DNA of 64,000 nt from an uncultured Chloroflexia bacterium (GCA_963696405.1 CAVOJY010000003.1:66407-130406); one strand, 5' to 3'; numbered from the stretch's first letter, positions 6,377-35,676 are shown. The notes: generated by a model from the sequence alone, not told the origin. Translations and numbers: made by a program.

Positions 6377-7339
6377 CTACTTCGTGATGATCGTCCCGGT
6401 CCTGCCTGCGAGCGCGTCGATAGCCTTGTCCAGCGACGTGACGATGGCTCTCTCGCCACCCCACTCGACGAACTTGATGGCCGACGCGATCTTCGGGCCC
6501 ATGCTGCCGGCGAGGAAGTGGCCCTCGGCGGCGTGCTTCTTGATGTCCTCGACGCTGATGTGGCCGATGGGCTGCGCGTTCGCCTTGCCGTAGTTCAGGA
6601 TCGCGTGCTCGACATCGGTCAGCATCATGAACGTGTCGGCCGCGATGCCCTCTGCAAGCACCTCGCCGGCGCGGTCCTTGTCGATGACGGCCTCGAGGCC
6701 CTGGTAGTTGCCGTCAGCATCCTCCATGACGGGGATCCCGCCGCCGCCGGAGGCGATGACGATGATGCGGGCGTCGAGCATCTTGTTGATGACCCTGAGC
6801 TCGGCATTGCGGGTCGGGATCGGAGACGGCACGGTACGACGCCAGCCCTTCTCGGCGGACGGCTTGACGTGCTTGATGATGTAGTCCGGGTGCGCTTCCT
6901 TCAGGGCCTTGGCCTCCTCTTCGGAGAAGAAGTTGCCGACCGGCTTGGAGGCGTTGTCGCCCACGAACTCGGGGTCGTTCGGGTCCACGACGACCTGGTT
7001 GACGATGGCAACGACGTCCACGTCAAGGCCGTGTGCCTTCAGGTGCTTCTCCATCGTGTTCATGAACATGTAGCCGATCTGGCCCTGGGTCATGGCGCCG
7101 ACCACGTCGAGCGGCTGCGCCGGGACCTTCTCCTTGCCGGCGACCTGCTGAACGTCCAGGTTGCCCGACTGCGGGCCGTTGCCGTGCGTGATGGCGAGCC
7201 TGTCGCCACCCCTGAACCCGCTCACGATCTTCGCGAGCGCCTCGGCGGTGACTTCGCAGTTCGCGAACTGCTCCGCTGCCGTGCCTGCCTCATGAGCCTG
7301 TTTGATGGCGTTGCCGCCGAGAGCTACGAGTACTCTCAC
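6377..7339 (-). CDS. arcC: Carbamate kinase
   Basis: MRVLVALGGNAI..., ITHGNGPQSGN and IASGGGGIPV motifs. GTG start preceded by GGAGGA. Confidence 0.9.
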   Translation of the reverse strand: MRVLVALGGNAIKQAHEAGTAAEQFANCEVTAEALAKIVSGFRGGDRLAITHGNGPQSGNLDVQQVAGKEKVPAQPLDVVGAMTQGQIGYMFMNTMEKHLKAHGLDVDVVAIVNQVVVDPNDPEFVGDNASKPVGNFFSEEEAKALKEAHPDYIIKHVKPSAEKGWRRTVPSPIPTRNAELRVINKMLDARIIVIASGGGGIPVMEDADGNYQGLEAVIDKDRAGEVLAEGIAADTFMMLTDVEHAILNYGKANAQPIGHISVEDIKKHAAEGHFLAGSMGPKIASAIKFVEWGGERAIVTSLDKAIDALAGRTGTIITK

Positions 7340-7534
7340 CTATTCCTCCGGCACTTGTCTGCGCTCAGACCGTCTCGTGCGACGCGCGCCGGAGGTATCC
7401 AGAAACCCGGGCGGGCAGGCCGTCGCAGGAAAGAGGCATCGTAACAGGACCCGGCGCTGCCACGCGCAGCGACACGGCCACGCACGGCAGCGCCGCCGTG
7501 CGCGCGTGGCTCGCCCTTGACCGCTCTGCCGCCG

Positions 7535-8653
7535 TCAGCCGAACAGGATGCTCGCGACCACCAGTGTGAGCGTCAGGTTGAACACCGTGGCAGCGGCGAA
7601 GACGGCCAGCGGCCGCCACCCCGCCTGTCGGACCGGACCGACCCGGAACTCGAGCCCGATACAGACGAAGGCGAGCATGAAGAACCAGATGCGCAGGGTG
7701 TTGGCCACCCCGATCGCCGACTTGGCCGTTGCCTCGTCCACCGTGCCCTGCCACCAGGTGACGATGATCGATGCGAGGACGAAGCCCAGGACGAACTTCG
7801 GAAAGCGGTGCCAGATGTCCATGACGCCGGGACGGGCGGACCCGGGCGCCCGCTCGACCCGCGCCACGTAGTAGAGGGCAAGGAGGAAGGCCACCACGCC
7901 GATGAGAGCGTTCTGGGTGCTCTTCACGATCGACGCGATGTCGAGCGCCTCCTTGCCGGCGATGGATCCCGCGGCCGTCACCGCCGCCGTGGTGTCGATG
8001 TTGCCGCCGATCCATGCCCCGGTCACCACCTGCGAGAGCCCCAGCTGCGTCGCCAGCCAGGGCTGGATGAAGATCGACGGCAGCGCGAAGAGGATGACGA
8101 GGCCGGTCGCATACGCGAGGTCCTCCTTCTTCGCGTGGACCGCCCCGGCAGCGGCGATGGCCGCGCTCACCCCGCAGATCGCGAGCGCCGCCGCGAGCAG
8201 GGCCCGGAGCTTCGCCTCGAGCCCGAGGGCCCCGGCCAGGAACCAGGTGAACAGGAACACGGATGTGACGACGATGAGCGCCTGCACCACCGACGAGCCG
8301 AGGTACTTCATGATGAGCGACAGGTTGACCGACGCGCCCAGGAGGACCAGGCCGGTCTTGATGAAGAACTCGGTCCGGAACGCAGCGTTCACGCGATCGC
8401 GCACGCCGAGCGCAACAAGGACGGCGCCGCCGAGCAGGCCGACCACGATCGCGTAGACGGGGAACTCGATCGTCTTCGCCACGCCCTCCCAGTCGGTGCC
8501 CTTGGCCCACGACGGGACGTTGAGGTCGAGGAACCGGGCGAGGCCGGCGAGCCCGAACACGATGATGAGCGAGATCACGATGTTGACCGGGCGGCGCGCC
8601 TCGTTCGCCACGACCAGGTCCCCCCGGGACTCGAGCTGGGCGTCGGCCGTCAC
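7535..8653 (-). CDS. YeiH/UPF0324 family membrane protein (putative sulfate-exporter family transporter)
   Basis: Polytopic membrane protein with the family-typical LAICGVSAAIAAAGA and WIGGNIDTTAAV segments. Its GTG start overlaps the upstream stop (GTGA). Confidence 0.75.
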   Translation of the reverse strand: MTADAQLESRGDLVVANEARRPVNIVISLIIVFGLAGLARFLDLNVPSWAKGTDWEGVAKTIEFPVYAIVVGLLGGAVLVALGVRDRVNAAFRTEFFIKTGLVLLGASVNLSLIMKYLGSSVVQALIVVTSVFLFTWFLAGALGLEAKLRALLAAALAICGVSAAIAAAGAVHAKKEDLAYATGLVILFALPSIFIQPWLATQLGLSQVVTGAWIGGNIDTTAAVTAAGSIAGKEALDIASIVKSTQNALIGVVAFLLALYYVARVERAPGSARPGVMDIWHRFPKFVLGFVLASIIVTWWQGTVDEATAKSAIGVANTLRIWFFMLAFVCIGLEFRVGPVRQAGWRPLAVFAAATVFNLTLTLVVASILFG

Positions 8654-8841
8654 GGCACGATCCCCTTCGGGATGATTCCCAGGAGGACGAGCGCGAGAAG
8701 GAAGAGGCCGAGCAGCGTCGCCGCAAGGTCCTCGCTGATCCCGTAGCCCCGCGAGGCGTCGGGCTCGATTCCGGGTGTGGTACCGGTCTCCGTCTCCCCG
8801 GATGCGTCCGCTGGGGACCGTTCCATGTCGCCGCTGCTCAC
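8650..8841 (-). CDS. Small membrane protein (hypothetical)
   Basis: 63 aa with an acidic N-terminus and one TM helix (LAATLLGLFLLALVLLGII). GTGA overlaps with both neighbours suggest translational coupling. Confidence 0.4.
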   Translation of the reverse strand: MSSGDMERSPADASGETETGTTPGIEPDASRGYGISEDLAATLLGLFLLALVLLGIIPKGIVP

Positions 8842-10046
8842 GTGCCTCCCTCTCCGATCACGCGACGGTAGATCTCGACGTGCCGATGCGCCGAGGATCT
8901 CCAGTCGAACTGGCGCGCCGTGGCAAATCCGCCCTGGCAGAGACGGGACGCGAGCACCGGGTCGGTGACCACACGGGCGAGAGCGGCGCCGAGCGCCTCC
9001 TCATCGTACGGCGGGACGAGGAGCGCGTTGACGCCATCCTGCAGGTACTCGTGGAGCACCTCGATGTCGCTGGCGACGACCGGCAAACCGGACGCCTGGG
9101 CCTCCAGCACGACGAGCCCCCAGCCCTCGGCGATCGAGGGGAAGGCCAGGACATCCGCCGCCCGGTAGCACGCGGCGATGACCTCTTCCTCGACTGGGCC
9201 CAGGATGCGGACGGCATCGGCGGGCAGCGTGCCGTCGCGGATGAGTCCGGCGAGTTCGCGCTCGTATGCGACGCGGTAGTCGCGGTAGTCGAAGAGCGTC
9301 TCGCCCCCGACCACGACCACGACGGGCTTCCGGCCGGTGGCCGCGGCAAGCGTCCGCTCGACCCGGGCAAACGCCCGCAGGAGCGTCAGGCTGTTCTTCC
9401 GCGGCTCGACGCCGCCCACGGCAAGGACCGCCACGGTGCCGTCCAGGCCGAGTCGTCGGCGGTCGGCCTCGCGCGCCGACTCGTCCGCGGGCGGCTGCCG
9501 GGCGGCGAGGTCCACGCCGTTGTGGACGACGGGGGCGTCGATCCCGTACTCGTCGCGCAGCCGGCGCTGCCACCACCGGCTGACGACCATCACGACGTCG
9601 GGGCGGACGATCGAGTCGTGCTGGCAGCTGATGAGACCGGGGCTCGTGAAGTCGTCCGTGTGGTGGACTGTCCGGACGACGGCCGGTACCAGTCCCTCGT
9701 CGCGGAGCTGGACCAGGGCGTTCCCGCTGATGCAGTCCTCGGCGTGGTAGATGTCGCATCCGCTGCCGGGGCCCAGGTCGTCGCGCAGGAAGTCGACGTA
9801 CGCCTGGATGTAGCGGGGCACCTTGTCATCCACCGACTCGTCGGGCACCTCGGCCACCGGGATGAACGTCGCGGGCACGCGGATCGGCCGGTAGAAGCCC
9901 GATCGGCCCGGCTTCTCGAGGGCGAAGAGGCGGACCTCGTGCCCCAGGTCCTGGAGCGCCTCCGCAAGCTGGAGCGAATGGACGACCCCGCCTCGCGCCC
10001 TGGTCGAGTACGTGAAGAGGCCGACGCGCAGCGGCCGGTCCGTCAT
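8838..10046 (-). CDS. GT4-family glycosyltransferase, resembling the MSMEG_0565 (Nit1C-cluster) glycosyltransferase family
   Basis: N-terminus LRVGLFTYSTRARGGVVHSLQLAEALQDLGHEV and a C-terminal GT-B motif (FPSIAEGWGLVVLEAQASGLPVVASD). The subfamily assignment is from memory of the family pattern and is not verified. Confidence 0.8.
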   Translation of the reverse strand: MTDRPLRVGLFTYSTRARGGVVHSLQLAEALQDLGHEVRLFALEKPGRSGFYRPIRVPATFIPVAEVPDESVDDKVPRYIQAYVDFLRDDLGPGSGCDIYHAEDCISGNALVQLRDEGLVPAVVRTVHHTDDFTSPGLISCQHDSIVRPDVVMVVSRWWQRRLRDEYGIDAPVVHNGVDLAARQPPADESAREADRRRLGLDGTVAVLAVGGVEPRKNSLTLLRAFARVERTLAAATGRKPVVVVVGGETLFDYRDYRVAYERELAGLIRDGTLPADAVRILGPVEEEVIAACYRAADVLAFPSIAEGWGLVVLEAQASGLPVVASDIEVLHEYLQDGVNALLVPPYDEEALGAALARVVTDPVLASRLCQGGFATARQFDWRSSAHRHVEIYRRVIGEGGT

Positions 10047-10090
10047 GACCTGTCGGCCCCCCGGCCCGCGGCTCTTCCGTTCGCCTGCGA

Positions 10091-11659
10091 TCAGGCCCGG
10101 CCGGAGACGATCAGTCCCGCGAGACGGGCGGCTTTCGCGTTCGTGGGCTGCACGATGACCCCGGCCGCCCGGAGCGTCTCCTCCTGCCGGTCGAGCCCCT
10201 GCGGATCAAGGTCCGTGCCGAGGACATGGGCCACCACGGCAAGTTCCCGTCCGGCGGACGCTGCCGCCGCGCGCGCCTCGCGGATGGCGGGGGCAAGCGC
10301 GCCGGCCGGGTCGTCGTGTGAGCCGTACCCGATCTCCACGTCGAGGAGCAGGACGGCCGTCTCGGGATCGGCCCCCTCCTGGAGGATGCGGTCGACGCGG
10401 AGCCGCGGGTCGATCATGGGGTGCGGGCGACCGCGGGTGAACTCCTCCTCGCCGAGGTCGACGAGGGCGTGTCCCTCGCTCTTCCAGGCATCGGCCAGGA
10501 GGAGGTTCGGGTCGCCCCCCGCGTTCGAGAGGACCTTGCCCAGCTCCATGGCCGGGTCGCGGAGGATGAGCAGCGACTCGTCGCAGAGGCTGCCGCCCGA
10601 GTAGAGGCCGCGCAGGTACTTCTGACCGGGGGCGAGCTTCGCCGCCGCCGCCGCGGCCAGCTCCTCGATCTCCCCCGCGCGGCCTTCGAACGGGTCGGCC
10701 GTGCTGCTGTCGAGCGCCTGGAGGGCGCGCGTGGCGGCTTCCTCCAGCGTGCGGGCGAAGGTCAGGTTCGCCCCCTGGACGCTCGTCGGCTCGCCGCCGA
10801 GGAAGCCGACGACGACCGGCTTCCCGCACTCGCGCGCCTGCGCCAGGACCTGGTCGGCCACGATCTTCTCCGGCGGCTTCGAGAGGAGGGCGATGACCTT
10901 CGTGTCGGGGTCCTCGGCCAGGAGCTCGAGCCCGAGGCGGGTGGTGAGTCCCCCCACGGCGACGCGCAGGTCGCGTCCGCCGGTCCCGATCCCCTGGCTG
11001 ATGCCGGAGCCTCCCCGGTGGACGAGGACGGTGAACTCCTGGAGCCCGGTGCCGGAGCCCGCCACGACGCCGATGGGTCCGCTGCGGACGCGGTTGGCAA
11101 AGGCGAGGGCAACCCCGTCGATGATGGCCGTCCCGGCTCCCGGGCCCATGACCAGGAGCCGGCGCTTGACGGCCTGCGCCTTGAGATCCCGCTCGTCCTC
11201 GATCGAGACGTTGTCGCTGAAGAGAAGGACGTGGCAGCCGGCCTCGATGGCATGTGCGGCCTCGAGCGTGGCGTACTCACCCGCGACAGACACGATTGCG
11301 ATCTCCGCCCCGCCGAGCCTCGCGACGCCCTTCTTCAGCGTGCGTGCCGGCGCCGGCCCCGCCTCGTCGCCCTCGCGCGGCTGCGATGCGGCCACCAGGA
11401 GTTCCTCGGCACGGGTCACCGCCGCGTCCGCCGCCGCGTCGTCACCCGCCTCCACGGCGATGACGAGGTCGTCCGACTTCGCGCCGGCGAGGGCTTCGTC
11501 GAGAAGCCCGGCCTCGGACAGGAGGCGGAGGTTCGCATCGGTGGCCATGCCCACGACCGACTGCGTCACGCCGGGCAGATGGGCCAGCTCGTCGGAGATG
11601 CGCATGAGGCGCACGGAATCCTGGTAGATGCCCGGCTTGAGGCGCGTTCGAACGCTCAC
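10091..11659 (-). CDS. fdrA: FdrA family protein (succinyl-CoA-synthetase-alpha-like; AllF-like)
   Basis: N-terminus LKPGIYQDSVRLMRISDEL...VVGMATDANLRLL parallels E. coli FdrA. CoA-ligase-like glycine-rich segments follow (GPIGVVAGSGTGLQE). Confidence 0.85.
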   Translation of the reverse strand: MSVRTRLKPGIYQDSVRLMRISDELAHLPGVTQSVVGMATDANLRLLSEAGLLDEALAGAKSDDLVIAVEAGDDAAADAAVTRAEELLVAASQPREGDEAGPAPARTLKKGVARLGGAEIAIVSVAGEYATLEAAHAIEAGCHVLLFSDNVSIEDERDLKAQAVKRRLLVMGPGAGTAIIDGVALAFANRVRSGPIGVVAGSGTGLQEFTVLVHRGGSGISQGIGTGGRDLRVAVGGLTTRLGLELLAEDPDTKVIALLSKPPEKIVADQVLAQARECGKPVVVGFLGGEPTSVQGANLTFARTLEEAATRALQALDSSTADPFEGRAGEIEELAAAAAAKLAPGQKYLRGLYSGGSLCDESLLILRDPAMELGKVLSNAGGDPNLLLADAWKSEGHALVDLGEEEFTRGRPHPMIDPRLRVDRILQEGADPETAVLLLDVEIGYGSHDDPAGALAPAIREARAAAASAGRELAVVAHVLGTDLDPQGLDRQEETLRAAGVIVQPTNAKAARLAGLIVSGRA

Positions 11660-12036
11660 GTGGGTGTCCCCCGCTTCTTCTTGGCGGCCGTCTGGCGCTC
11701 ATCTTTGACGCCGCGGACGAATTCCTGGACCTGGCCCGGCGAGTCGCCGCGCTCCACCTGCCGGGCGACCTCGCCGATCGCCGTGTCGCCCGTTCCCTTC
11801 GCGTAGCCGTCGGCCAGCTTGCCGGTGTACATCCGTCCGTCGGCCGGCCGGAGCTCCCCGGGCTTGGGCCCGGTGTCCTTCGTCCCGGTGTGGAGCACCG
11901 CCGGTGCGCTCATGCGACGGGCGACGCGGCTGCTCTTGCATCTCTCGCAGCGGACGTCCTTCGCCTGGGTCGAGCTTCGGAACCAGACCTCGAACCGCTC
12001 GCCGCAGTCCTCGCACTCGTACTCGTAGATCGGCAT
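11656..12036 (-). CDS. FmdB-family zinc-ribbon protein
   Basis: MPIYEYECEDCGERFEV...VRCERCKS is the CxxC...CxxC zinc ribbon of the FmdB/CxxC_CxxC_SSSS family. Its stop overlaps the fdrA GTG start. Confidence 0.85.
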   Translation of the reverse strand: MPIYEYECEDCGERFEVWFRSSTQAKDVRCERCKSSRVARRMSAPAVLHTGTKDTGPKPGELRPADGRMYTGKLADGYAKGTGDTAIGEVARQVERGDSPGQVQEFVRGVKDERQTAAKKKRGTPT

Positions 12037-12039
12037 GGC

Positions 12040-12848
12040 TCAGCTTCTCCCGGCCTTGACGTCGGACGCCGCCGCACGCGCGGCATCGCTTGCCAGCCGG
12101 CGCTCGTACCGTTTCTTGTACTTGCGTTTCGCCTGCTCGAAAGCCTTCTCCATCGACTCGCGGTCGGCGAACGTGCGGGTCTCCTCGAGCGGCTTCGCCC
12201 CCCGTACCGGCGCCCCGGTCTCGGGGTTCACGGCCATGATCTCGAGCCACCAGCTCACGCCGCGGTCCCAGTCCCGCGAGGAGGAGGCGAAGACCGCGAC
12301 CCCGGCGCGGGTGTGGATGTCCACGCGCCGGAACGTGCGCTGGCCTCCGAAGGCGATGAAGCCGTCCGCCGTCCGCAACCAGGTTTCCCCGGCCTCACGC
12401 GCCGCAGCCATCCGTTCCGCCGTCGCCGACGTCAGCTCCTCGCTGCGGATGTCGTGGAGACGCAGGTTGAACGCCGCATCCCGGGCCGACGCTACGTCCA
12501 CCCAGTCGGCCTCGACCGTGTTCAGCGCCGCGAGGCGCTCCTCGGCCCACTCCACGTCACGCTCGTCGTACGCTGCCTCGAGCTCCTCCTCGGAACCGAT
12601 GTCGGCGAGGCCGGCAGCAAGGCCATGGACCGCCGCCAGGGCGGCGTTGTAGAACTCCGGTTCGGCGAGGCCGTAGCCGAAGAACAGCGCCTCCGCCTCG
12701 CGCCACCGGCGGAGGAGGTCCGGGCGAATCGACGGCTCGGCGGTCCGCTCGACCGGGCTCCTGGCGAGCCTGTCCGCGGGCGGACCAGCCGCCCTGCCGC
12801 CGGCGGACCAGCCGCCCTGCCGCCTGGCCGCCCGGCCGATCCTTCGGC
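12040..12848 (-). pseudogene. Conserved hypothetical protein, 5' end frameshifted by a 23-bp tandem duplication (or an assembly artefact)
   Basis: The protein-like frame (RWREAEALFFGYGLAEPEFYNAAL...KRKYKKRYERRL) has no ATG/GTG near its 5' end. ATG at 12848 overlaps the DUF1116 stop (TGATG) but is out of frame. Deleting one 23-bp repeat copy restores the frame (my arithmetic is in the findings). Confidence 0.5.
12779..12824 (-). repeat. Perfect 2 x 23-bp tandem duplication (ggcggaccagccgccctgccgcc)
   Basis: Read directly: 12779-12801 and 12802-12824 are identical. Confidence 0.95.
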
Positions 12849-12850
12849 CA

Positions 12851-14287
12851 TCAGGCGGCTCCGCCCTCCGCCGCCCACTTCTCGCCCAGGGCGCGCAGGG
12901 CGTCCTGGAAGAGCTCGATCGGGCCCGGTGCGGCCCCCGCGCCGATCTGGCCGGCGACGGGGCTCGTCTCGTGGACGGCGCCGGTGTCGATCCGCGGCAC
13001 GATGCCCGTCTCGACGACGAGCCGAACGTCGATGCCGGTGGGGGTGCCGGCAAAACCGAGTGCCGGGACGGTGAACGTGGGGTGCGCGCCGACGCAGATC
13101 GTGCCCATGTCCTCGGCCGCGCGGGATTCGTCGTCCACCGTCCCGCCGGCGAAGGCGGCCATGGTGGGCGCCGCGGCGATGGCCATGTAGCCGATCCCGG
13201 CGCACTCGATGATCGAGCTGTCGCCGATGTCCCCGGCGTTGTCGCGGTCCGAGAAGCCGGTGTAGTAGAGGACGTTCTCCCAGGCCGGGAGCGGGCGTGT
13301 CAGCCACTGGTCGCCCAGGCCGCTCACGCGCAGGCCGAAGTCCCGGGCGTTCCGGCTCATGCCGGTGACCACCGTGGAGTACGGGATGCCGTGGGCCGCA
13401 TCCGCTGCCACCCTGCAGCCGGCCATCGTGACGGGCAACGCGAAGAGCGGGTTGGTCTCGAGGAAGCGGATGACCCGCGCCGCCGCGGGTCCGGAGATGC
13501 CCGCCTCCAACATCGGTGCCGCGAGCGACCGGATCAGCAGCGCGGTCAGGGCCTGGAACCGGGCGTGGAGTTCGTCTCCCATCTGGAGGGCCTGGGCGAA
13601 GACCGAGAAGAGGTCCAGGCCGTGGAGCCGGTCGAGCGCCGCGGTGACCGCCGGCCCCAGTTCGTCGCGGAACCAGTCCAGGCGGTCGAAGGTGGGGGTC
13701 CCCGGGTTCCCCAGCCAGATCGTGTGCTCACGCCCCTCGTTGATGAGGCCGTATGCAGACAGGCCGAGGGCTTCGTCCCGGACGACGTGGACGGGCATGG
13801 AGGGCGAGATGACGCCCGCCATCGGGCAGACCGACGAGTGGAGGTTCGTGGGCTCCAGGCGGATCTCCCCGGCGCGCAGGTCCCGGGCTGCGGCGTCCGG
13901 GTTGGGGGCCCAGCCCTCCCACACGGCGGCCCAGGCGGCCGCCCGCTGGTGAGGTCCGCACATGACCTCGTACGGCCGGGCGGGCCCGGAATGGATGATG
14001 ATCCGGCCGTCCATCCCCGGGATGGCGTCCCCGGCACGGCGGATCCCCACCCAGGACGGCCGCGCGGATACGAGGCGCCTGAGCGCCTCGGCATTGGCGG
14101 CGGCGATGTGCTCGCGCACGGGACCCGTGGCGACCAGGAGACGGACGAGCTCCGGGTCCCCGCCAGCGGGCGGCCGCCACGCGACGTCGATGGCGGGGAT
14201 CTCCTGCGCGCGTACCGCTTCGGAGAAGGATTCCAGGCCGACGTTGACGACGCGCGTGGACGCGCCGGTGAGATAGCCCACGCTCAA
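12851..14287 (-). CDS. DUF1116 domain protein (YlbE/AllG-like)
   Basis: 478 aa. The general pattern and its position next to FdrA match the YlbE/DUF1116 family. The start is TTG or a nearby GTG and overlaps the OsmC stop. Confidence 0.75.
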   Translation of the reverse strand: MSVGYLTGASTRVVNVGLESFSEAVRAQEIPAIDVAWRPPAGGDPELVRLLVATGPVREHIAAANAEALRRLVSARPSWVGIRRAGDAIPGMDGRIIIHSGPARPYEVMCGPHQRAAAWAAVWEGWAPNPDAAARDLRAGEIRLEPTNLHSSVCPMAGVISPSMPVHVVRDEALGLSAYGLINEGREHTIWLGNPGTPTFDRLDWFRDELGPAVTAALDRLHGLDLFSVFAQALQMGDELHARFQALTALLIRSLAAPMLEAGISGPAAARVIRFLETNPLFALPVTMAGCRVAADAAHGIPYSTVVTGMSRNARDFGLRVSGLGDQWLTRPLPAWENVLYYTGFSDRDNAGDIGDSSIIECAGIGYMAIAAAPTMAAFAGGTVDDESRAAEDMGTICVGAHPTFTVPALGFAGTPTGIDVRLVVETGIVPRIDTGAVHETSPVAGQIGAGAAPGPIELFQDALRALGEKWAAEGGAA

Positions 14288-14841
14288 CCCTCGCTCATTC
14301 CACTCGTCTTATCGTGCGATTCTCCGGTCCCCGGCACCACGGCGGACACCTTCAGGCCGATGCCCGGCACGATCGACCGCGTGATCCAGCAGACGTCCTC
14401 GGCCAGGTGCACCAGCCGCTCGAACTCCTCGGGCGCGGTGACCGCCAGTGTGCTGGCCGCACTCACCTCGATCAGCTCGTAGCGGCGTTCCGGGTAGTCG
14501 TGCACACCGCTGACGATCACCTCGAGGTCCGGGAGCTCGATGCGCCGCTTGCGCGCCGCCCATGCGACCGCCATGGCGAAGCAGGAGGCCACGCTGGCGA
14601 AGAGGTACTCGGACGGCATCGGAGCGCTGTCCGTGCCGCCGTCCTCGACCCGCTCGTCGGAGGTGAGCCGGAACCGACCCTGCCGGACACTCATCTCCAC
14701 CCGGAACCCGCCCAGCCAGGTTGCCTCAACGCGGCGGTGGCCGTGCGGGTGGAGGACGCCGGACGGTCTCCAGGGTCCCTTCGACCGGGCCGGCTCGTCG
14801 GGAACCGGCCCGGTCGGGATGGGCTCTACGCGGGATCCCAA
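14284..14841 (-). CDS. OsmC/Ohr family protein
   Basis: Two conserved Cys contexts (LFASVASCFAMAV and LAEDVCWITRS). Start uncertain; an in-frame TTG at 14841 is the nearest candidate that keeps the OsmC N-terminal strand. Confidence 0.65.
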   Translation of the reverse strand: MGSRVEPIPTGPVPDEPARSKGPWRPSGVLHPHGHRRVEATWLGGFRVEMSVRQGRFRLTSDERVEDGGTDSAPMPSEYLFASVASCFAMAVAWAARKRRIELPDLEVIVSGVHDYPERRYELIEVSAASTLAVTAPEEFERLVHLAEDVCWITRSIVPGIGLKVSAVVPGTGESHDKTSGMSEG

Positions 14842-15092: not shown

Positions 15093-15102
15093 GGCTCGTC
15101 TC

Positions 15103-16591: not shown

Positions 16592-17671
16592 CTATGCAGG
16601 CCTCGCGGCCTCCGCGTAGTCGGCGTGCCGCGCGTAGAGACCGGGCTCACCGCCCGTGTGGACGAACACGACGGTCGCGTCGCGGGCGATCTCGCCGCGA
16701 CGCACCAGGCCGACGAGCCCGGCCATCGCCTTCCCGGTGTAGACGGGATCCAGCACGAGGCCCTCTGTCTCCAGGGCCAGGCGGATCGCCGCGCCGCACT
16801 CTGTCGTGGGGGCCCCGTAGCCCCCGCCGATGTAGCCGTCCTCGAGGTGGACGTCGGCCGCGTCGATGGTCACCCCCAGGCGCAGGAGATCCGCGGTGCC
16901 CTGGGCGAGACCCAGGACACGCGGCGCCATGTCCGCGCGGCTCCGGCTCACCAGGATCCCCACGACCCGGTACGTCGCGTGGATCCAGGCTGCGCCCGCG
17001 AGCAGGCCCGCGTGGGTCCCGCCCGAGCCGTTGGCCACCACGAGGACCTCCGGCCGGGCGTCCTTCTCCGCGAGCTGCGCCTCGAGCTCGGCGCTTGCCT
17101 CCACGTACCCGGCGTCGCCCACCGGGGTCGCCGCCCCGCGCGCGAGGACGCACGGTCGCCGGCCGGCCCCGCGCAGCTCGGCGGCGAGGGCATCCGCGGC
17201 CGGCTCCACCGAGCCGCGGTCGGGATCCCCGGTGAAGACGAAGCGCGTGCCCACGAGCGACTCGAGGAGGAGGTTGCCGTCCCGTTCGGCCGGCGGGGAG
17301 CCGTAGAACACCGCGATCGGGTCGAGGCCGGCCGCGCGCGCCGCGATCATGGCCGTCCGGACGGCGTTCGACTGCGGCCCGCCCACGGCGATCAGCGTGT
17401 CGGCGCCCTGGGCCAGGGCCTCGCCGATCAGGAACTCGAGCTTGCGTACCTTGTTGCCTCCAGCCCCGAACCCGGTCAGGTCGTCGCGCTTGACCAGGAG
17501 CCGGTCCACGCCGATGGCACGGGCCAGGCACCGCGCGTCGTGGAGGGGCGTCGGCAGGTGCGCGAGCGGAAAGCGCGGCAGCGTGACCGGCAGCGCGCGC
17601 TGGACGGGGCGTTGCCGTCCCTCGGCGGCATGCGCCGCGATCGGCCGGTCGCCCGCAGACGGTTCGGTCAT
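16592..17671 (-). CDS. ACC deaminase / D-cysteine desulfhydrase family PLP-dependent enzyme
   Basis: LPTPLH...LLVKRDDLTGFGAGGNKVRKLEFLIGEA...AVGGPQSNAVR. Family-typical PLP-lysine motif (GGNKxRKLE). Confidence 0.85.
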   Translation of the reverse strand: MTEPSAGDRPIAAHAAEGRQRPVQRALPVTLPRFPLAHLPTPLHDARCLARAIGVDRLLVKRDDLTGFGAGGNKVRKLEFLIGEALAQGADTLIAVGGPQSNAVRTAMIAARAAGLDPIAVFYGSPPAERDGNLLLESLVGTRFVFTGDPDRGSVEPAADALAAELRGAGRRPCVLARGAATPVGDAGYVEASAELEAQLAEKDARPEVLVVANGSGGTHAGLLAGAAWIHATYRVVGILVSRSRADMAPRVLGLAQGTADLLRLGVTIDAADVHLEDGYIGGGYGAPTTECGAAIRLALETEGLVLDPVYTGKAMAGLVGLVRRGEIARDATVVFVHTGGEPGLYARHADYAEAARPA

Positions 17672-19008
17672 CCGCCGGTCACCCGGTCAACGAGCTGCTC
17701 GGCCAGCCCCGGCGCCGGTGCGGTGACGAGCCGGTCGACCTCGCCGGCCGGAAGGACGCCGCCGACGAGCGGATCCTCCACGAGGACGTCCCGCAGCGCC
17801 CGCCCGCTCTCGCGCGCCCGCACAGCGGCCGCGTGGACCCGCTCGTGGGCAGTCTGCTTGCCGATGAGCTGCGCGAGGGCGCCCATGACCGCCTCGGCTG
17901 CCACCTCCTGGTGCCTCGCGTCCAGGTTCCGTTTCATGGCGCCGGCATGGACCTCCAGCCCGTCGAGCAGGTCGCGCGCGAGGCCGAGCGCCGCGCCCGT
18001 GGCAACGCACGCGGACGGGATCGCCGCCCACTCGCTCTTCCAGCTGCGGCCGTCGCGCTCGTGGTCGCCGACGAGCGCCTCGAGCATGATGTCGGCGTCG
18101 CGGCGGACGATCCGGGCGAGCGTCCCCAGCTGTTCGCTGCGCTCGGGGTTCCGCTTCTGGGGCATGGTGATGCTGCCGACGTCCGCGCTTCTCGACGGTT
18201 CTGCCAGCTCGCCGATCTCCGGGCGCTGGAGGTTGTAGACCTCGTGACCGATCCGGTCGAGGGTGGCCGCCACCATCGCCAGCCAGACGACGAACTCGGC
18301 GAAACGGTCGCGCGAGACGGTCCAGCTGATGGCCGGAGCGGCGAGGCCCATGCGGTGCATGACCCGCTCCTGCAGCTCCAGACCGCGCGGTCCGTAGCCG
18401 GAGAGCGTCCCCACGCCGCCAGCGAGCTGCCCGACCGCGAGTCTCGGCCGCATCTGCCGGAGGCGCTCGCGGTGACGTCGGAGCTCGTCTGCCCACACGG
18501 CTGCCTTGTAGCCGAAAGTGATCGGCAGGCCGGGCTGGCCGTGTGTACGACCCACCATGGGAGTCGAGCGGTGCTCGCGGGCGAGGGCCACGGCGCGTTC
18601 CTCGATCGCCCCGAGATCACGCTCCGCGACGTCCGCGACCCGCAGGAGCGCGACCGCGAGCCACGTGTCGGTGATGTCCTGGACGGTCGCGCCGTAGCAG
18701 ACCCATTCGCCGGCGCCGCCGGCGCAGCGAGCCGCCATGGCTCGGATGAGGCCGAGGAGCGAGTGGCCGGTCGCCGCGTATCCGGCGCGGACCTCGTCGA
18801 GGTCGGCCGCCTCGCCGCGCATCACGCGCGCGATCTCGGCCGCGGCGTCGGCCGGGATGATTTCGAGGGCAGCCTCCTCCTCGGCCAGGACGGCCATGAC
18901 CTCGCACCAGCCGCGGGTGCGGCCCTCGTCCTCGAAGAGCGGCCGCAGCTCGTCGCTTCCCCAGGTGGGGCCGAAGATGTACGAGTCGACGGGGTGGACG
19001 GACGACAT
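17668..19008 (-). CDS. Class-II (aspartase/fumarase superfamily) lyase, adenylosuccinate lyase / 3-carboxymuconate cycloisomerase-like
   Basis: 446 aa with superfamily signature GSITMPQKRNPERSE. ATGA overlap with the downstream PLP enzyme. Confidence 0.85.
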   Translation of the reverse strand: MSSVHPVDSYIFGPTWGSDELRPLFEDEGRTRGWCEVMAVLAEEEAALEIIPADAAAEIARVMRGEAADLDEVRAGYAATGHSLLGLIRAMAARCAGGAGEWVCYGATVQDITDTWLAVALLRVADVAERDLGAIEERAVALAREHRSTPMVGRTHGQPGLPITFGYKAAVWADELRRHRERLRQMRPRLAVGQLAGGVGTLSGYGPRGLELQERVMHRMGLAAPAISWTVSRDRFAEFVVWLAMVAATLDRIGHEVYNLQRPEIGELAEPSRSADVGSITMPQKRNPERSEQLGTLARIVRRDADIMLEALVGDHERDGRSWKSEWAAIPSACVATGAALGLARDLLDGLEVHAGAMKRNLDARHQEVAAEAVMGALAQLIGKQTAHERVHAAAVRARESGRALRDVLVEDPLVGGVLPAGEVDRLVTAPAPGLAEQLVDRVTGG

Positions 19009-19038
19009 CGTCGGGCCCTCCCTTTCCGGGGCTTCCGT

Positions 19039-20595
19039 TCAGGTCTCGGTGTGCCGGGTGTCTTCGGCGGTTCCGGCGGTCCCCGCTCCGGCGATGGTGC
19101 GGGCCCGTGCCAGGAGCGCCTCCTCAGCGTGGCCGATCGCCGAGGTCCGGGTGTCGATCCAGCGCTGCTGCCGGCGGAGGTCCCGACGGCGGTCGGCGAC
19201 CATCGCGCGGACGGCCGCCGGCGCGGCGCCGCCGATGCCGGTCCGGCGGGCCACGGCCAGCTCCGGGTCCAGCGCCTCGCGGATGGCCGCGTCGTCCAGG
19301 CCGGCCGGTTCCCCGGCCACCTCGATCGCCGCCGCGTCGAGAGCGGCCGCGTCGATCCCGTCGATCTCGTTCCCCGCCTCGAGCGCCACCCGCACCGCCT
19401 GGGCCACCACCTTGTGGGCCGTCCCGAAGGGCATGACACCGCGGAGCATGATCTCCTCCGCCAGGTCGTTGCCCGCGAGGTAGCCCCGCGCAGCCGCCGC
19501 GGCCAGCTTCGCGCGGTCGAAGATGATGCCGCTCATGACCTCCGTCAGCAGCGCCGTGCCCTGCTCGGCCAGCTCGAGCGAATCGGGCACCTCGTCCTGG
19601 GCGTAGATCCGCGGGTCGGGCTGACCCGTCGCGGTCTTCGCCACCGCCGCCGCGCCCGCAAGGCGGCCGACAAGGCGCGCGGCAGCGCCGCGAACGAACA
19701 CGAGCGCGTAGGGGTTCTTCTTCTGGGGCATGGCCAGGCTGATCCGGCTCGTCCGGTCCGCGAGCTCGACGAAGCCGAACTCGCGGGTGTCCCAGGTGAG
19801 GAGGTCCTCGGCCAGCCGGTCGAGGGTCAGGCCCACGCTGGCCGCGAGCGCCGTCAGCTCGACCGCCAGGTCGGCCTGCCAGTTCGCGTCCCGGGCATGG
19901 ACGACCACCCCGTCGAACCCGAGCTGCCGGGCCAGCAGCTCGCGGTCCAGGACGATGGTGGCGCCGTTCGTGCAGCCCGCCCCCGCGGGACTCAGGTTTG
20001 CCCGGCCCCATGCCGACTGCAGCCGCTCGGCGTCCCGGGCGAGCGGGTAGACGTAGGCGAGCAGGGCGTGCGCCAGGCTCGACGGCTGCGCCGCCTGCCA
20101 GTACGTGTAGTCGACCGACAGCGTGGTGACGTGCCTGGCCGCGAGATCGACGAGCGCGCGCTGGAGCCGCTCCAGCCCCACCGCAAGGGCGAGGAGCCGG
20201 CGCCGCACGGCCAGGTGGTAGGCGACCACCGACGCCTCCCGCCGCGGCCGGCCCACGAGGAGGTACCCGGCATCCGGCCCGATCTGCCGGCGCAGCCATG
20301 CTTCACGGTTCATCACGAGATCGCCGCACGCGGGGTCGGCGAGGCCGCTCCCCGGATCCACCCCCGCCCCGTAAGGCTGGATCGAGCTGACGACCGCGTC
20401 GCGCAGCTCGAGGATGGCGCCCACCAGGCGCCGGCCCGGCTTGGGTGGGATGTACCCGCTCTCGATGAGCAGAAGCGTGTTGGCGAGATCGGCGAGCGCC
20501 AGCTCGGGCATCAGCGCAGGCGCCGCCAGGAGTTCGAGCCGGTACGCCGAGCGAACGAGCTCGGGCGAGGGACCCTCCATGAGCCGCCCGGTCAT
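19039..20595 (-). CDS. Argininosuccinate-lyase-like class-II lyase (paralog, not the housekeeping argH)
   Basis: Signature SLAMPQKKNPYAL. I take the start at ATG 20595, which overlaps the ComA stop (ATGA), not the longer ORF start at 20652. Confidence 0.8.
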   Translation of the reverse strand: MTGRLMEGPSPELVRSAYRLELLAAPALMPELALADLANTLLLIESGYIPPKPGRRLVGAILELRDAVVSSIQPYGAGVDPGSGLADPACGDLVMNREAWLRRQIGPDAGYLLVGRPRREASVVAYHLAVRRRLLALAVGLERLQRALVDLAARHVTTLSVDYTYWQAAQPSSLAHALLAYVYPLARDAERLQSAWGRANLSPAGAGCTNGATIVLDRELLARQLGFDGVVVHARDANWQADLAVELTALAASVGLTLDRLAEDLLTWDTREFGFVELADRTSRISLAMPQKKNPYALVFVRGAAARLVGRLAGAAAVAKTATGQPDPRIYAQDEVPDSLELAEQGTALLTEVMSGIIFDRAKLAAAAARGYLAGNDLAEEIMLRGVMPFGTAHKVVAQAVRVALEAGNEIDGIDAAALDAAAIEVAGEPAGLDDAAIREALDPELAVARRTGIGGAAPAAVRAMVADRRRDLRRQQRWIDTRTSAIGHAEEALLARARTIAGAGTAGTAEDTRHTET

Positions 20596-21462
20596 GGCGT
20601 GCCCGCGCCGCGCGGGGCGCCGTGCGGCGCTCCCGCGGGGATGTTCGCCCACTCGCCGCCCCGCCCCTCCAGTGCCGCGTGGAGCGTCTCGAAGCGGAGC
20701 CCGCGCCGGAGCGCCTCCACCGCCAGGATGTCGGCCGTGGGGATGTTCGCCAGGTTGACGTTCGGCCCGAACCGGAGGATGAGGTAGGACTGCTGGTCCT
20801 GGATGGGCGCCTCCCAGAGGATGCGCAACGGGTCGGCCACCGGCCCCACCAGGGCGTCGACCTTGCTCTCGACCACGTGGCCGGACGCATCGAACACGCC
20901 GGTGCCACGCCCGGACTCCCGGGCCTCGATGGTCACGAAGTCCGCCCCGAGCTCAAGGTCGACGAGGAGACGTTCGGCCATCTCTTCTGGTGACGGCTGG
21001 CGCTCGGGGTCCTTGCGTCCCACCTCCGTCACCACGTGCAGGCCGGCGTCCTGGGCCCGGCGGATCGCCTCGGCCCGGGCCTCGGCGGGCATGTCGATGG
21101 TGCCGTCGCTCACCTCGACCCCGGTGAAGCCAAGCTCACGGGCACGCGAGACGAACGCCGCGAGCCGCCCGGACGCCCAGGCCCCCTCGAGCAGCGTTCC
21201 ACCCGGGTAGACGAGCATCCCCGCGTCGACGAGGCGGGCGATCTTGCGGCGGAGAACCTCCAGCGCCGACCGTCGCCGTCGTGCCGAACCCGAACTTCAC
21301 GTGGTCGATCACCTGGCCCGCCATCTCCACGAGGTCGTCGGTGGCGTGGAGCCCGAGCCCCTTGTCGATGACCGCGGTGATCCCCGCGCGGCGGGGCTTG
21401 GCGGTGCGCGGGCCCAGGTAACAGTGGATCGCGTCGCCCCAGGCCGTCTCGTGGTCAGTCAT
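20592..21462 (-). pseudogene. comA: Phosphosulfolactate synthase (ComA family), split by a 1-nt frameshift (or a sequencing error)
   Basis: The N-terminal part (ORF 21136..21462) runs ...KPRRAGITAVIDKGLGLHATDDLVEMAGQVIDHVKFGFGT. The C-terminal part (ORF 20592..21218) runs MLVYPGGTLLEGA...GFTGVEVSDGTI...EVGRK. My retranslation shows the second frame already reads SALEVLRRKIARLVDAG upstream of the M, so the shift lies at about 21258-21285. Confidence 0.75.
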
Positions 21463-21520
21463 GCGGGTTCCACCTCATCCGGTCATGCTCGGGGCCCGCG
21501 TCGCGGCGGGCCACGCCGGC

Positions 21521-22390
21521 TCACGCCGGCCCTACCAGTTCCTTCAGGCCTTCCTCGACTTCTTCGAGGGTCGCGCCCCAGGGCACCGTGACCACGTTGC
21601 CGTCGCGCTGGATCCCCCGTTCGAGGAGGCAGCACTTCAGGAGCGTAAGCGTGTCACGGTGACCGGTGAGCCGCCGGGGGCAGATGTCCGCCGCCGGCGG
21701 TCGGTCCCCGTAGTGGTGCTCGTGGATCTGCAGGCTGCGCTCGCAGCCGACGAGCGTCCAGTCGGCGCGCGCGGGTCGCTCGTCGAGGAAGTGGACCGGC
21801 GCCCCCATGTCCTCGAAACCGGACGACCGGCAGGGGAAGAGGTACCCGTCCGGCTGCGGTTGGACACCGGCCGCGAGATCGCGCAGGTCGATCCGCTCGA
21901 GGCGCGGGACCATGGCCCCGATCGGGGCGACGGCGAGCACCCGCTGCACCTGGTCCCAGAGCTTCGGCGGCTCCGGTGGAGCCGCCTCGACGATGGTCAC
22001 CTCGAACGGCTCCGGATGGGCGATGAAGTTGACGTGCTCGTACCGCCCGACCACGACGAGCGCCTCGTCGGGTCCGAGCCCCAGCTCCAGCGCCTTCGCG
22101 AGCATGGCCGACGGGATCCCCGTGTCAACGTCATGGTCGGTGACCGACCGCGTCAGAGCGGGCGGGGAGAGCCACTCGGCGCGGATGATCGGCGAGAACA
22201 GCGGGACGCGGCTCTGCTTCTCGACCTCGGCCACGGCAATCCCCGGCCCGGCAGGCTCACGGTAGACGATGTAGTCGGTGTGCCGGTACGCCTCGCGCCC
22301 GACGATCGTGCGCAGGCCGTCGTCGGTGAGGGGGAAGTCGGCGGTCTGGTAGCTCACCCTCCGGTAGGGGAGGGGCACGAGGTTGCGCAT
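21521..22390 (-). CDS. Conserved hypothetical protein
   Basis: Start taken at MRNLVPLPYRR (ATG 22390, 16 nt after the upstream stop). Protein-like composition with several Cys (FPCRSSGF, LVGCERS, ICPRRL, LLKCCLLERG). No family recognised. Confidence 0.55.
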   Translation of the reverse strand: MRNLVPLPYRRVSYQTADFPLTDDGLRTIVGREAYRHTDYIVYREPAGPGIAVAEVEKQSRVPLFSPIIRAEWLSPPALTRSVTDHDVDTGIPSAMLAKALELGLGPDEALVVVGRYEHVNFIAHPEPFEVTIVEAAPPEPPKLWDQVQRVLAVAPIGAMVPRLERIDLRDLAAGVQPQPDGYLFPCRSSGFEDMGAPVHFLDERPARADWTLVGCERSLQIHEHHYGDRPPAADICPRRLTGHRDTLTLLKCCLLERGIQRDGNVVTVPWGATLEEVEEGLKELVGPA

Positions 22391-22406
22391 CGGTTCTCCG
22401 TCCTGC

Positions 22407-23276
22407 TCAGGCCGCGGCCGCGGGATCGGCTGCGCCCGGCCCGGCGGCGTTGGCGATCGTTCTGCGGGAGAGCAGGGCCCGCCCGCCGAGGACGACACCG
22501 GTCAGCATATCCCCGCCGGACGTTTCTCCGACGGCGAGCAGCGGTGCGATGTCGGGCGGACCGGCGGTCTCGCGGCGCAGCAGGGCTCCCAGCAGGCGGG
22601 CAAGCGGCGCGAAGACGTGGCCGCGCGCTGCCGCGTCGACCATCTGGGCGGCGAAGCGGGTGGTGCGAGGCATCGCGGCGTCCCGGAGCGCCGCCCGGAG
22701 CGCGCGGCCGTCTGCGAGGACCCCGGCGTGATCGCCCCATGCGCTGAAGGCGAGCGCCCCGGCCAGGAGGTCGTCTCCGGAGGGCGTGAGCCCGGGTCCG
22801 AGGCCGGCGAGCCGCTGCGCCGCCGCGGCTGCGGCGGCCGGGTCCCCGGAGGACAGGGCTTGCGTCAACGCCTGGAGGTCCCCGTCGCGCGCGACCGCGT
22901 GGATCCCGCGCGCACCCGCGCCGGCGCGCCGCGCGATGTCTGCGAGCTGTCGCAGCCGGCGCTCGACCTCGTCGGGCTCCGCGGCATCAGTGGCATCGAT
23001 CAGCGCGGGTCGCCAGGTGACGGCACCCCGCTCGTCCACGTCCGGCACGCCGTCCAGGGACCGGAGATCGCGGGGCGCCTCGGGACCGAGCCGCGCCGTG
23101 AAGGGTCCGTCGGCAAGGTCGTGTCGCACGAGCGACAGGAGCGCACCGTCAACCCCGGAGGCGAGGATGACGGCACGCTCGAAGCGAGCGTGGACAGACC
23201 AACCTTGAGAAGTTGTGAGCGGGGATCGGAGCAGCCGGGCCGCCTCCTCGTCCGCGCTGATGACGCGAAGCCTCAC
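22407..23276 (-). CDS. DUF2877 domain protein (YlbF/AllH-like)
   Basis: Motifs GLGPGLTPSGDDLLAGAL and LAVGETSGGDMLTGVVLG are typical of DUF2877. GTG start at 23276 is preceded by GGAGG with an 8-nt spacer. Confidence 0.7.
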   Translation of the reverse strand: MRLRVISADEEAARLLRSPLTTSQGWSVHARFERAVILASGVDGALLSLVRHDLADGPFTARLGPEAPRDLRSLDGVPDVDERGAVTWRPALIDATDAAEPDEVERRLRQLADIARRAGAGARGIHAVARDGDLQALTQALSSGDPAAAAAAAQRLAGLGPGLTPSGDDLLAGALAFSAWGDHAGVLADGRALRAALRDAAMPRTTRFAAQMVDAAARGHVFAPLARLLGALLRRETAGPPDIAPLLAVGETSGGDMLTGVVLGGRALLSRRTIANAAGPGAADPAAAA

Positions 23277-30918: not shown

Positions 30919-30950
30919 GTCGGCTCCCCGGTCACGGGCGGGTGCGAGGG

Positions 30951-35373: not shown

Positions 35374-35676
<303 letters not shown>

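Follow-up and report, generated by a model that had tools for sequence, protein, structure and literature searches.

The subject of this work is a gene array on the minus strand of a 64,000-nucleotide stretch of DNA (hereafter the window; GC content about 71%) from an uncultured Chloroflexia bacterium (GCA_963696405.1 CAVOJY010000003.1:66407-130406). Judged by its predicted genes, the full unit comprises about 23 genes over 22.4 kb (6377-28767) and joins three gene sets, each already known: the xcb genes for bacterial synthesis of coenzyme M (CoM, 2-mercaptoethanesulfonate), a Nit1C-type set devoid of its nitrilase, and an AllFGH-like trio with a carbamate kinase. What appears to be new is their union in one cluster spanning several phyla, a combination unreported in the titles and abstracts of the open-access literature searched. 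Taken together, the gene identities and the conservation of the cluster, as read from sequence comparison, are in our estimate highly probable. Positions are counted from the first letter of the window, and cluster genes lie on the minus strand unless otherwise stated.

Extent and architecture of the array

Between 6377 and 23276, the list of open reading frames (ORFs) and the GC content by codon position describe an unbroken minus-strand coding run, in which 17 co-directional ORFs were counted. A first-pass annotation, made by a model from the sequence alone, had proposed here a single-strand array of about 20 genes; the run is real, although the number of genes is lower, and its six 4-nt overlaps stand at the positions given there (8650/8653, 8838/8841, 11656/11659, 14284/14287, 17668/17671 and 20592/20595). 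The family names that it had assigned were all borne out by Pfam and NCBIfam hidden Markov models (HMMs). Of its limits, 6377 and 23276, the left one is kept, while the unit runs on to the right as far as 28767.

The bounds 6377-28767 were set because the genes change character on both sides in the family scans: to the right, a methyltransferase gene on the plus strand precedes a radical-SAM fragment and a NifX-like gene, and to the left lie a small GBBH-like gene, Ppk and CHAD/CYTH genes. An Rfam scan of 5000-31000 gave no match at E up to 1. A promoter and terminator scan returned zero minus-strand sites and fewer matches than shuffled sequence, and thus says nothing about operon structure.

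The coenzyme M block

By family models and gene order, the block at 16592-22390 is assigned to xcbA-B-C-D-E, the already published bacterial pathway of CoM synthesis. In Xanthobacter autotrophicus Py2, XcbB (ComA), C, D, E and A turn phosphoenolpyruvate, sulfite and cysteine into CoM: XcbB adds sulfite to phosphoenolpyruvate, XcbC then removes phosphate, leaving sulfoacrylate, to which XcbD joins cysteine, the pyridoxal phosphate (PLP) enzyme XcbE frees sulfoethanethioaldehyde, and XcbA reduces this product to CoM (Wu et al., 2022; PMC9457059).

The gene between comA and the AllH gene, left unidentified by the first-pass annotation, encodes XcbA, of a [2Fe-2S] reductase family (DUF7714; 21521-22390; NF052538 343 bits, cut-off 150; PF24830 5e-75). 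It is 48.5% identical to Xaut_5070 and has five cysteines that are invariant across 12 homologs, the window's copy included; a PDB sequence search found nothing for it. Next comes the phosphosulfolactate synthase XcbB/ComA (20592-21462), whose frame is broken and which matches the Pfam ComA model at 8e-56 through its C-terminal part only, as well as TIGR03849 with 223 bits over the C-terminal 208 aa. The two lyases that follow are Pfam Lyase_1 proteins. The first, an XcbC-like paralogue of argininosuccinate lyase (19039-20595), scores 463 bits with NF052535 (cut-off 575) and 250 with argH, and its family model assigns it the elimination of phosphate from phosphosulfolactate; the genuine ArgH of the window (44332-46464) scores oppositely, 542 bits with argH against 199 with XcbC. 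The second, adenylosuccinate-lyase-like, is assigned to XcbD, 3-sulfopropionylcysteine synthase (17668-19008; NF052536 630 bits, cut-off 600), and has counterparts in Py2 and JS614 at 48-49% identity. The last gene, overlapping xcbD by 4 nt (17668/17671), encodes an XcbE-like PLP enzyme of the D-cysteine desulfhydrase family (PALP; 16592-17671), for which the XcbE model NF052537 ranks first (334 bits, cut-off 450), ahead of CuyA (297 bits). Its homologs from the CoM clusters of Py2, JS614 and NBB4 are 44.5-51% identical to it, and D-cysteine-desulfhydrase-family proteins of Pantoea and Paracoccus, at 43-45%, are about as close to it as the Xanthobacter XcbE. Because such proteins from unrelated plasmids resemble it about as well, part of the XcbE call depends on synteny.

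XcbA is a rare family: a tblastn search of 72,556 plasmids with the DUF7714 protein as query matched six records only, namely pXAUT01, pNOCA01 of Nocardioides JS614, two plasmids of M. chubuense NBB4 and two of Methylocystis iwaonis. Four of the six (Xanthobacter Py2, JS614, NBB4) belong to known CoM-using alkene oxidisers. The order on pXAUT01 (XcbA, phosphosulfolactate synthase, ASL, fumarate lyase) is that of the window. With the clusters of Py2, JS614 and NBB4 the block shares XcbA to XcbD and a probable XcbE at 38-51% identity, the A-B-C-D-E order of Xaut_5070-5067, the five XcbA cysteines and a pyridine-nucleotide-disulfide oxidoreductase nearby. It differs from them in its Chloroflexota-like host, in the interleaving of xcb with AllFGH, carbamate-kinase and Nit1C-type genes, in the frame-shifted comA of this assembly, and in its lack of CoM-consuming partners. 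Searches by tblastn with JS614 and Py2 queries found in the window no epoxyalkane:CoM transferase (EaCoMT), alkene monooxygenase, short-chain dehydrogenase/reductase (SDR), CoA-transferase, 2-KPCC or hydroxypropyl-CoM dehydrogenase; the sole match to these CoM-pathway queries was a flavoprotein, 27-33% identical.

The first-pass annotation had read the lyases, the PLP enzyme and ComA as parts of a new pathway for an N-succino or ureido sulfur compound rather than as CoM synthesis. NCBIfam scores and gene order make them XcbC, XcbD, probably XcbE, and XcbB instead. The sulfur theme of that annotation is retained. The older reading could draw on the XcbC and XcbE scores that stay under their cut-offs, on the proximity of XcbE to the Pantoea and Paracoccus proteins, and on the want of a CoM-consuming enzyme nearby; but all five Xcb families stand in canonical order, XcbD and XcbA exceed their cut-offs, XcbA is confined among plasmids to six records of which four come from known CoM users, and 38-49% identity to Py2 and JS614 is ordinary for orthologs of different phyla. 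We regard that reading as quite improbable.

Nit1C-type genes

A glycosyltransferase gene inside the array, the AIR-synthase-like gene and four further upstream genes tie it, by their family models, to the Nit1C cluster family. The reference taken for the canonical form was the plasmid cluster of A. vitis, with the family composition given in PMC11049912 (nitBCDEFGH plus the MSMEG_0565 glycosyltransferase; MSMEG_0565-0572 / sll0783-0787). Five of the eight Nit1C families are present, four of them in the upstream part of the unit. The MSMEG_0565-family GT4 glycosyltransferase (8838-10046; TIGR04047 387 bits, cut-off 260) is also related to MshA (TIGR03449, 114 bits) and BshA (TIGR03999, 61 bits), and homologs 45-49% identical to it adjoin AllF in five loci of other genomes (L078, L085, L086, L087, L088). 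The NitF-type, sll0787-family AIR-synthase-like protein (23332-24384, plus strand) attains 314 bits with TIGR04049 (cut-off 321) and also matches methanogenesis marker 2 (4e-52). There follow the NitE-type, MSMEG_0567/Sll0786-family GNAT acetyltransferase (24424-25149; TIGR04045 98 bits, cut-off 68), the NitD-type, MSMEG_0568-family radical SAM protein (25919-27031; TIGR04043 480 bits, cut-off 304), 49% identical to its canonical A. vitis homolog, and the NitB-type, MSMEG_0572/Sll0783-family protein (27150-27656; TIGR04044 202 bits, cut-off 110), for which the PDB sequence search found nothing. The first cluster gene encodes an Amidohydro_2-family metal hydrolase (27781-28767; PF04909 1.2e-17), which heads the cluster also in L003, L085, L086 and L088.

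The remaining three Nit1C families are missing. No Nit6803-family nitrilase (NitC) was found among the cluster ORFs, and the places of the nitrilase, NitG and NitH are taken by three proteins unrelated to them in sequence, respectively the Amidohydro_2 protein, a protein of 88 aa and a CoADR-type flavoprotein. Each was considered as a divergent version of the missing protein and rejected: by BLASTP, the Amidohydro_2 protein shows no similarity to the Nit6803 nitrilase, the 88-aa protein gives E = 1.8 with the A. vitis NitG (MSMEG_0570), and the flavoprotein E = 0.22 with the A. vitis NitH (MSMEG_0569). Thus the cluster resembles Nit1C in its NitB, D, E and F types and its glycosyltransferase, all called by curated HMMs, and the versions of the shared genes in L085, L086 and L088 are colinear with Nit1C; it departs from it in lacking NitC, NitG and NitH and in adding roughly a dozen genes. 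No sigma-54 regulator was seen in the window, whereas L088 has one.

The AIR-synthase-like gene is the sole inverted gene of the cluster and begins 55 bp from the divergent AllH start (14 bp in L092), so that a read-through transcript would be antisense to it. It is inverted as well in L003, L092 (314-1335) and L093 (13186-14164), and co-directional in L085, L086 and L088.

Nit1C is required for Pseudomonas to assimilate cyanide as a nitrogen source (PMC11049912). These families are otherwise poorly understood. To our knowledge, the nitrilase is the only Nit1C member with an assigned biochemistry.

The AllFGH-like trio and the carbamate kinase

The third set is made up of an AllH/DUF2877-like subunit, encoded by the first gene of the array as first annotated (22407-23276; PF11392 5e-20), an AllG/DUF1116-like subunit (12851-14287; PF06545 9e-68), an AllF/FdrA-like subunit that resembles the alpha chain of succinyl-CoA synthetase (10091-11659; NF004760 466 bits, cut-off 433), and a carbamate kinase that is the last cluster gene (6377-7339; NF009007 271 bits, cut-off 266; TIGR00746 354 bits, cut-off 358). 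The first-pass annotation had named the three subunits and proposed to check them by HMM; these scores uphold all three. Compared with Escherichia coli K-12, AllF is 37% identical to FdrA/AllF over 518 aa, AllG 38% identical to YlbE/AllG, AllH 41% identical to YlbF/AllH over the C-terminal 114 aa only, and the kinase 37% identical to AllK/YbcF. The sole PDB relative of AllG is the uncharacterised 3clq.

In E. coli, AllFGH converts oxalurate and inorganic phosphate into carbamoyl phosphate and oxamate, together with the catabolic carbamate kinase AllK (PMC11326118). The window shares with allF-allG-allH-allK the four homologs (37-41% identity) and their co-inheritance, but the genes are contiguous in E. 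coli and scattered over 17 kb here, the gaps between AllH, AllG, AllF and the kinase being 8 kb, 1.2 kb and 2.8 kb. Two further differences are an additional conserved protein (the 262-aa protein discussed below) between AllG and AllF, and the position of the FdrA C-terminal tail, which in the window sits at the N-terminus of AllG: residues 11-51 of the latter (14137-14257) match positions 511-551 of E. coli FdrA, as though a short segment had shifted between subunits. Moreover, no allantoin-pathway family turned up in the family scans of window ORFs, which did not take in every ORF. The trio and the kinase are present, as the earlier annotation had it, outside any allantoin context, and its end-step, the recovery of ATP through carbamoyl phosphate, is still the most reasonable reading of this part. 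The substrate is probably not oxalurate.

Recurrence of the cluster in other genomes

An XcbA alignment was scanned against one genome per GTDB species (185,579 genomes), of which 423 contain XcbA relatives, a spread far wider than the "small number of bacteria" of the literature. Eighty XcbA loci were sampled; from the AllG side, six relatives outside Limnocylindria (41-47% identity) were taken; and the window proteins were compared with all fetched loci in a tblastn matrix. The taxa that bear XcbA include Methylocystis, Methylocella, Methylocapsa, Bradyrhizobium, Methylibium, Rubrivivax, Ktedonobacteria and Acidobacteriota.

The seven nearest XcbA loci (67-72% identity) belong to metagenome-assembled genomes (MAGs) of Limnocylindria or Chloroflexia, and seven Limnocylindria species carry the same genes as the window in identical order. 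This proximity makes an origin of the window in that Chloroflexota class most likely, rather than in an actinomycete, as its GC content might have suggested. Farther away, virtually the whole set (some 20 families) recurs in three of the six AllG loci, in a gene order unlike that of the window: L085, labelled Anaerolineae, and L086, a metagenome contig, both of Chloroflexota type, and L088, a "Deltaproteobacteria" MAG. What these three have in common with the window are the Amidohydro_2 hydrolase, the NitB type, radical SAM, GNAT, AIR-synthase-like and CoADR-type proteins (the last 53-56% identical), a protein of about 95 aa, OsmC, AllG, a protein of about 210-230 aa without known family, AllF, the zinc ribbon, the GT4, xcb genes, carbamate kinase and AllH. 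Directly downstream of AllH, L088 has at 18250-21317 a sigma-54 activator, then LarC-like (Ni_insertion) and LarB-like (AIRC) genes. A partial set in yet another order (ComA, XcbA, XcbD, XcbE, XcbC, OsmC, AllG, GT4, AllF) is found in L078, an Actinomycetota MAG. The neighbourhood comparison with the seven Limnocylindria, L085, L086, L088 and, in part, L078 thus answers the doubt of the first-pass annotation as to whether the association is peculiar to this genome: it recurs beyond it, and the gene set is co-inherited across phyla. That the same families stand together in several distant lineages indicates that their association is more than chance.

Three unrelated operons (xcb, AllFGH with carbamate kinase, and a Nit1C-like one) might nevertheless have come to adjoin by accident, since each set is known alone, xcb with EaCoMT, AllFGH in ureide loci, and Nit1C in its canonical form. 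Against this speak the interleaving of the genes, which do not form neighbouring blocks; the persistence of the families together despite heavy reshuffling in at least four lineages; the 4-nt overlaps that span module borders, as between AllG and OsmC; and the presence of xcb within 10 kb of three of the six non-Limnocylindria AllG loci, although no more than 423 of the 185,579 species genomes have an XcbA. Accidental adjacency is very improbable.

The other 70 or so XcbA loci contain xcb genes without any AllFGH or Nit1C-type gene. An EtnE/EaCoMT-like gene, mostly 46-50% identical, is carried by 47 of the 80 loci, usually along with the CoA-transferase, SDR and ADP-forming acyl-CoA synthetase of the classical epoxide/CoM pathway; one alkene-monooxygenase subunit, queried against the 80 loci, matched the JS614 reference plasmid alone. 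Homologs of EaCoMT, CoA-transferase, SDR and ADP-forming acyl-CoA synthetase are missing from the window and from every composite-type locus, which points to a second, undescribed genomic context for CoM biosynthesis. As a cofactor, CoM is regarded as belonging to methanogens, to archaea that oxidise alkanes and to a few bacteria that oxidise alkenes (PMC9457059). The present class of loci, found in Chloroflexota and in one MAG each of Actinomycetota and "Deltaproteobacteria", has no known CoM-using enzyme. In turn, these loci bind the CoM genes to two poorly understood systems, the Nit1C core and the AllFGH-type carbamoyltransferase with its kinase.

As to the remaining three AllG contexts, L087 shows GT4, AllH and ABC-transporter genes, L089 an AtzD/TrzD-type ring amidohydrolase, and L090 carboxyltransferase and molybdo-hydroxylase genes. 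From these neighbourhoods the AllFGH trio would be a widely reused module, mostly in catabolic settings for nitrogen compounds. The carbamate kinase gene is found also in the composite loci L085, L086, L088, L092 and L093.

The last of these, L093 (Logan SRR24358107_1709), is a distant variant, located by way of a 262-aa-family protein of 25% identity. It keeps NitB-like, 262-aa-family, Amidohydro_2, radical SAM and GNAT proteins, an inverted AIR-synthase-like gene, AllG, AllH, carbamate kinase, AllF, GT4, OsmC and the CoADR-type flavoprotein; instead of xcb it has an Orn/DAP-type decarboxylase, an aminotransferase and a Methyltransf_20 protein. By this gene content, the xcb block would behave as an exchangeable feeder module on a core of 13 families. 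L093 additionally carries a Gpr1/Fun34/YaaH channel.

Accessory proteins

Several proteins without a place in the three known sets accompany them. Between AllG and AllF lies the gene of a conserved protein without known family (12040-12851), 262-270 aa long in relatives, whose coding nature is supported by GC content at codon positions and whose ATG overlaps the AllG stop codon. The family has no Pfam or NCBIfam model and amounts to 328 representative clusters in 1.84 billion proteins. An AlphaFold2 model reaches a mean confidence (pLDDT) of 89, and a fold search with it against the PDB found no match (best E 0.026, template-modelling score, TM, 0.2). Since its homologs sit between AllG and AllF also in the composite clusters L003, L085, L086 and L088, this protein may be an extra subunit of the AllFGH-like complex.

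The flavoprotein (15103-16443) belongs to the family of CoA-disulfide reductases (CoADR), NADH oxidases (Nox) and NADH peroxidases (Npx), with Pyr_redox_2 and dimerisation domains and a single redox cysteine, Cys43, in the motif SPCGIPY. It is homologous to that family over its full length and has the lone active-site cysteine at the same position, 43, and its closest PDB relatives are CoA-disulfide reductases and NADH oxidases; it differs in its TIGR03385 score of 247 bits, far below the CoADR equivalog cut-off of 579, and in being kept at 53-80% identity only within this type of cluster. It is also 33% identical, over the full length, to the flavoprotein adjoining comA in Nocardioides JS614. 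The OsmC/Ohr-family protein (14284 to about 14700, its start codon uncertain; PF02566 1.4e-14) has the usual cysteine pair, Cys40 and Cys104; the protein is conserved in all composite clusters. The FmdB-family zinc-ribbon protein (11656-12036; PF09723 5e-15; TIGR02605) has two CxxC pairs (cysteines 8, 11, 30 and 33); it is itself conserved in L003, L085, L086 and L088.

The conserved 88-aa protein without known family at the NitG position (14826-15092) is 61% identical to its L003 homolog and has homologs in L085, L086 and L088 too. A hydrophobic, polytopic membrane protein of 189 aa without family match (25225-25794) has homologs of 60-77% identity in L003-L010 and none in L085, L086 and L088; it was seen only in Limnocylindria. 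Near the left end stand a YeiH/putative sulfate-exporter-family membrane protein (7535-8653; PF03601 4.6e-45) and a 63-aa ORF with a hydrophobic C-terminus (8650-8841), an uncertain gene that overlaps its neighbours by 4 nt on both sides, has no family match and found none in 18 tabulated relatives; it could be the detached first transmembrane helix of the transporter. In the Limnocylindria relative L092 the carbamate kinase directly follows the GT4, with neither transporter nor 63-aa ORF, which suggests a recent lineage-specific insertion between GT4 and kinase in the window.

Frame disruptions in comA and the 262-aa gene

Two genes of the array are out of frame in this assembly. In comA, ORF 21136-21462 encodes the N-terminal 66 residues and 20592-21218 the remainder in another frame, due to one extra base near 21257 (GGAGTT to GGAGGTT); removal of any single base in 21251-21268 restores a 289-aa ComA colinear with that of L003. 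The 262-aa gene lacks one G from a GGG run at about 12801-12803 and has no usable start codon. At its 5' end a near-perfect tandem repeat of 2 x 23 nt (12779-12824) had been considered as a frame-breaking 23-bp duplication, an explanation discarded because the intact homolog P0241 (99% identical) carries the repeat in frame as a 24-nt duplication, GGRAAGPP occurring twice; the window is thus short of one G only. A further homolog, P0243, is without the duplication, so this end of the gene looks like a length-polymorphic, low-complexity N-terminus.

Two disruptions inside one operon could mark a decaying, non-functional remnant in which comA and the 262-aa gene are pseudogenes. Yet both are single-base changes in G/C runs (the second, GGG to GG), both genes are intact in relatives 94-99% identical, all the remaining genes are full length, and the window proteins exactly match a 386-kb MAG contig, probably from a long-read assembly, prone to such indels; moreover, the public protein P0263 also looks frame-scrambled across the junction of AllG and the 262-aa gene. 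Decay of the cluster is accordingly unlikely. The nature of the changes and the intact relatives lead us to read both indels as assembly errors rather than pseudogenisation, with good confidence.

A possible role in nitrogen salvage

As a whole, the explanation that we favour from these comparisons, with a probability of roughly 0.6, is a single conserved composite cluster joining the three gene sets, whose role may be a thiol-dependent salvage of nitrogen. The mechanism that we would propose for it is, as such, tentative and less likely than not. The xcb module would supply a small sulfonated thiol, CoM, for use inside the cluster, by analogy with the alkene-oxidiser plasmids, which carry xcb beside CoM-using enzymes. 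The CoADR-type flavoprotein, through Cys43, and OsmC would handle the disulfide and peroxide chemistry of the thiol. The AllFGH-like enzyme would phosphorolyse a carbamoyl group, borne by a ureide or an S-carbamoyl thiol, into carbamoyl phosphate, from which carbamate kinase would yield ATP, NH3 and CO2. The whole route would be one of thiol-dependent nitrogen salvage or detoxification, akin in purpose to Nit1C.

Succinyl-CoA synthetase phosphorolyses a thioester. Because AllF is a homolog of its alpha chain, phosphorolysis of an S-carbamoyl thiol is, by this analogy, a chemically natural candidate reaction for the AllFGH-like enzyme. A more specific version makes CoM, or the sulfonated thiol that the xcb genes produce, the working cofactor of a novel pathway: it would capture an electrophilic species of one carbon and nitrogen (cyanide, cyanate, nitrile or ureide) as an S-carbamoyl adduct, to be phosphorolysed by AllFGH and passed on to the kinase. 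We consider this version unlikely. Were it true, CoM would have a bacterial role outside hydrocarbon metabolism, and the Nit1C core and the wider AllFGH family would gain a first biochemical handle. In any case, the linkage yields concrete hypotheses for all three systems, and the candidate substrates, CoM, CoM disulfide and S-carbamoyl-CoM, can be purchased or synthesised.

Several observations weigh against a CoM-dependent nitrogen salvage. XcbC and XcbE fall under the curated NCBI cut-offs (463 against 575 and 334 against 450 bits), and identity alone cannot separate XcbE from other enzymes of the D-cysteine desulfhydrase family; the assembly at hand shows broken reading frames in comA and in the 262-aa gene; L085 lacks xcbA and xcbC inside its cluster; and the proposed route has no role for the glycosyltransferase, GNAT, radical SAM, AIR-synthase-like and NitB-type proteins. 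The replacement of xcb in L093 means, in addition, that CoM is not obligatory for the core, and that the substrate of the flavoprotein need not be CoM disulfide; it weakens any model in which CoM is indispensable and keeps a biosynthetic reading alive.

That reading is the main rival. It sees a biosynthetic cluster whose product derives from CoM or resembles it, for instance a low-molecular-weight thiol or cofactor bearing a glycosyl, acetyl or carbamoyl group, with xcb as the source of the building block, the kinase working toward carbamoyl phosphate and AllFGH acting as the carbamoyltransferase. Together, a glycosyltransferase, an amidohydrolase, a GNAT, a disulfide reductase and a thiol peroxidase are reminiscent of the systems for mycothiol and bacillithiol, and the GT4 is indeed related to MshA and BshA. 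An exchangeable feeder, as when the L093 set replaces xcb, is typical of natural-product clusters, and the Gene Ontology tags that NCBI gives to canonical Nit1C genes read "biosynthetic process", another point unfavourable to salvage. On the other side, dedicated carbamate kinases mark catabolic, ATP-yielding pathways, and cells already own a carbamoyl-phosphate synthetase. Furthermore, the remaining AllFGH loci of the sample serve the catabolism of ureides or N-heterocycles, AllFGH of E. coli is itself catabolic (PMC11326118), and Nit1C is genetically linked to the assimilation of nitrogen from cyanide (PMC11049912). Such a biosynthetic role is possible, and we place it a little behind the salvage mechanism set out above.

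Other loci in the window

Beyond the cluster, a locus of bacterial-microcompartment (BMC) type at 33128-37579 comprises RpiB, a DeoC aldolase, a CcmP-like tandem BMC shell protein (332 bits, cut-off 340) and a PduP-type acylating aldehyde dehydrogenase. At 47454-51589, two HdrA-like genes (462 and 604 bits with the HdrA2 model, far below its cut-off) come after an MvhD/FlpD-like gene, and no HdrB or HdrC was seen; HdrA homologs are widespread, but the genes are curious in a genome that encodes CoM synthesis. Finally, at 29873-31583, just outside the cluster, a radical-SAM ORF without the N-terminal part of its domain, possibly another frameshift, adjoins a gene similar to NifX and to the C-terminal part of NifB (Nitro_FeMo-Co).

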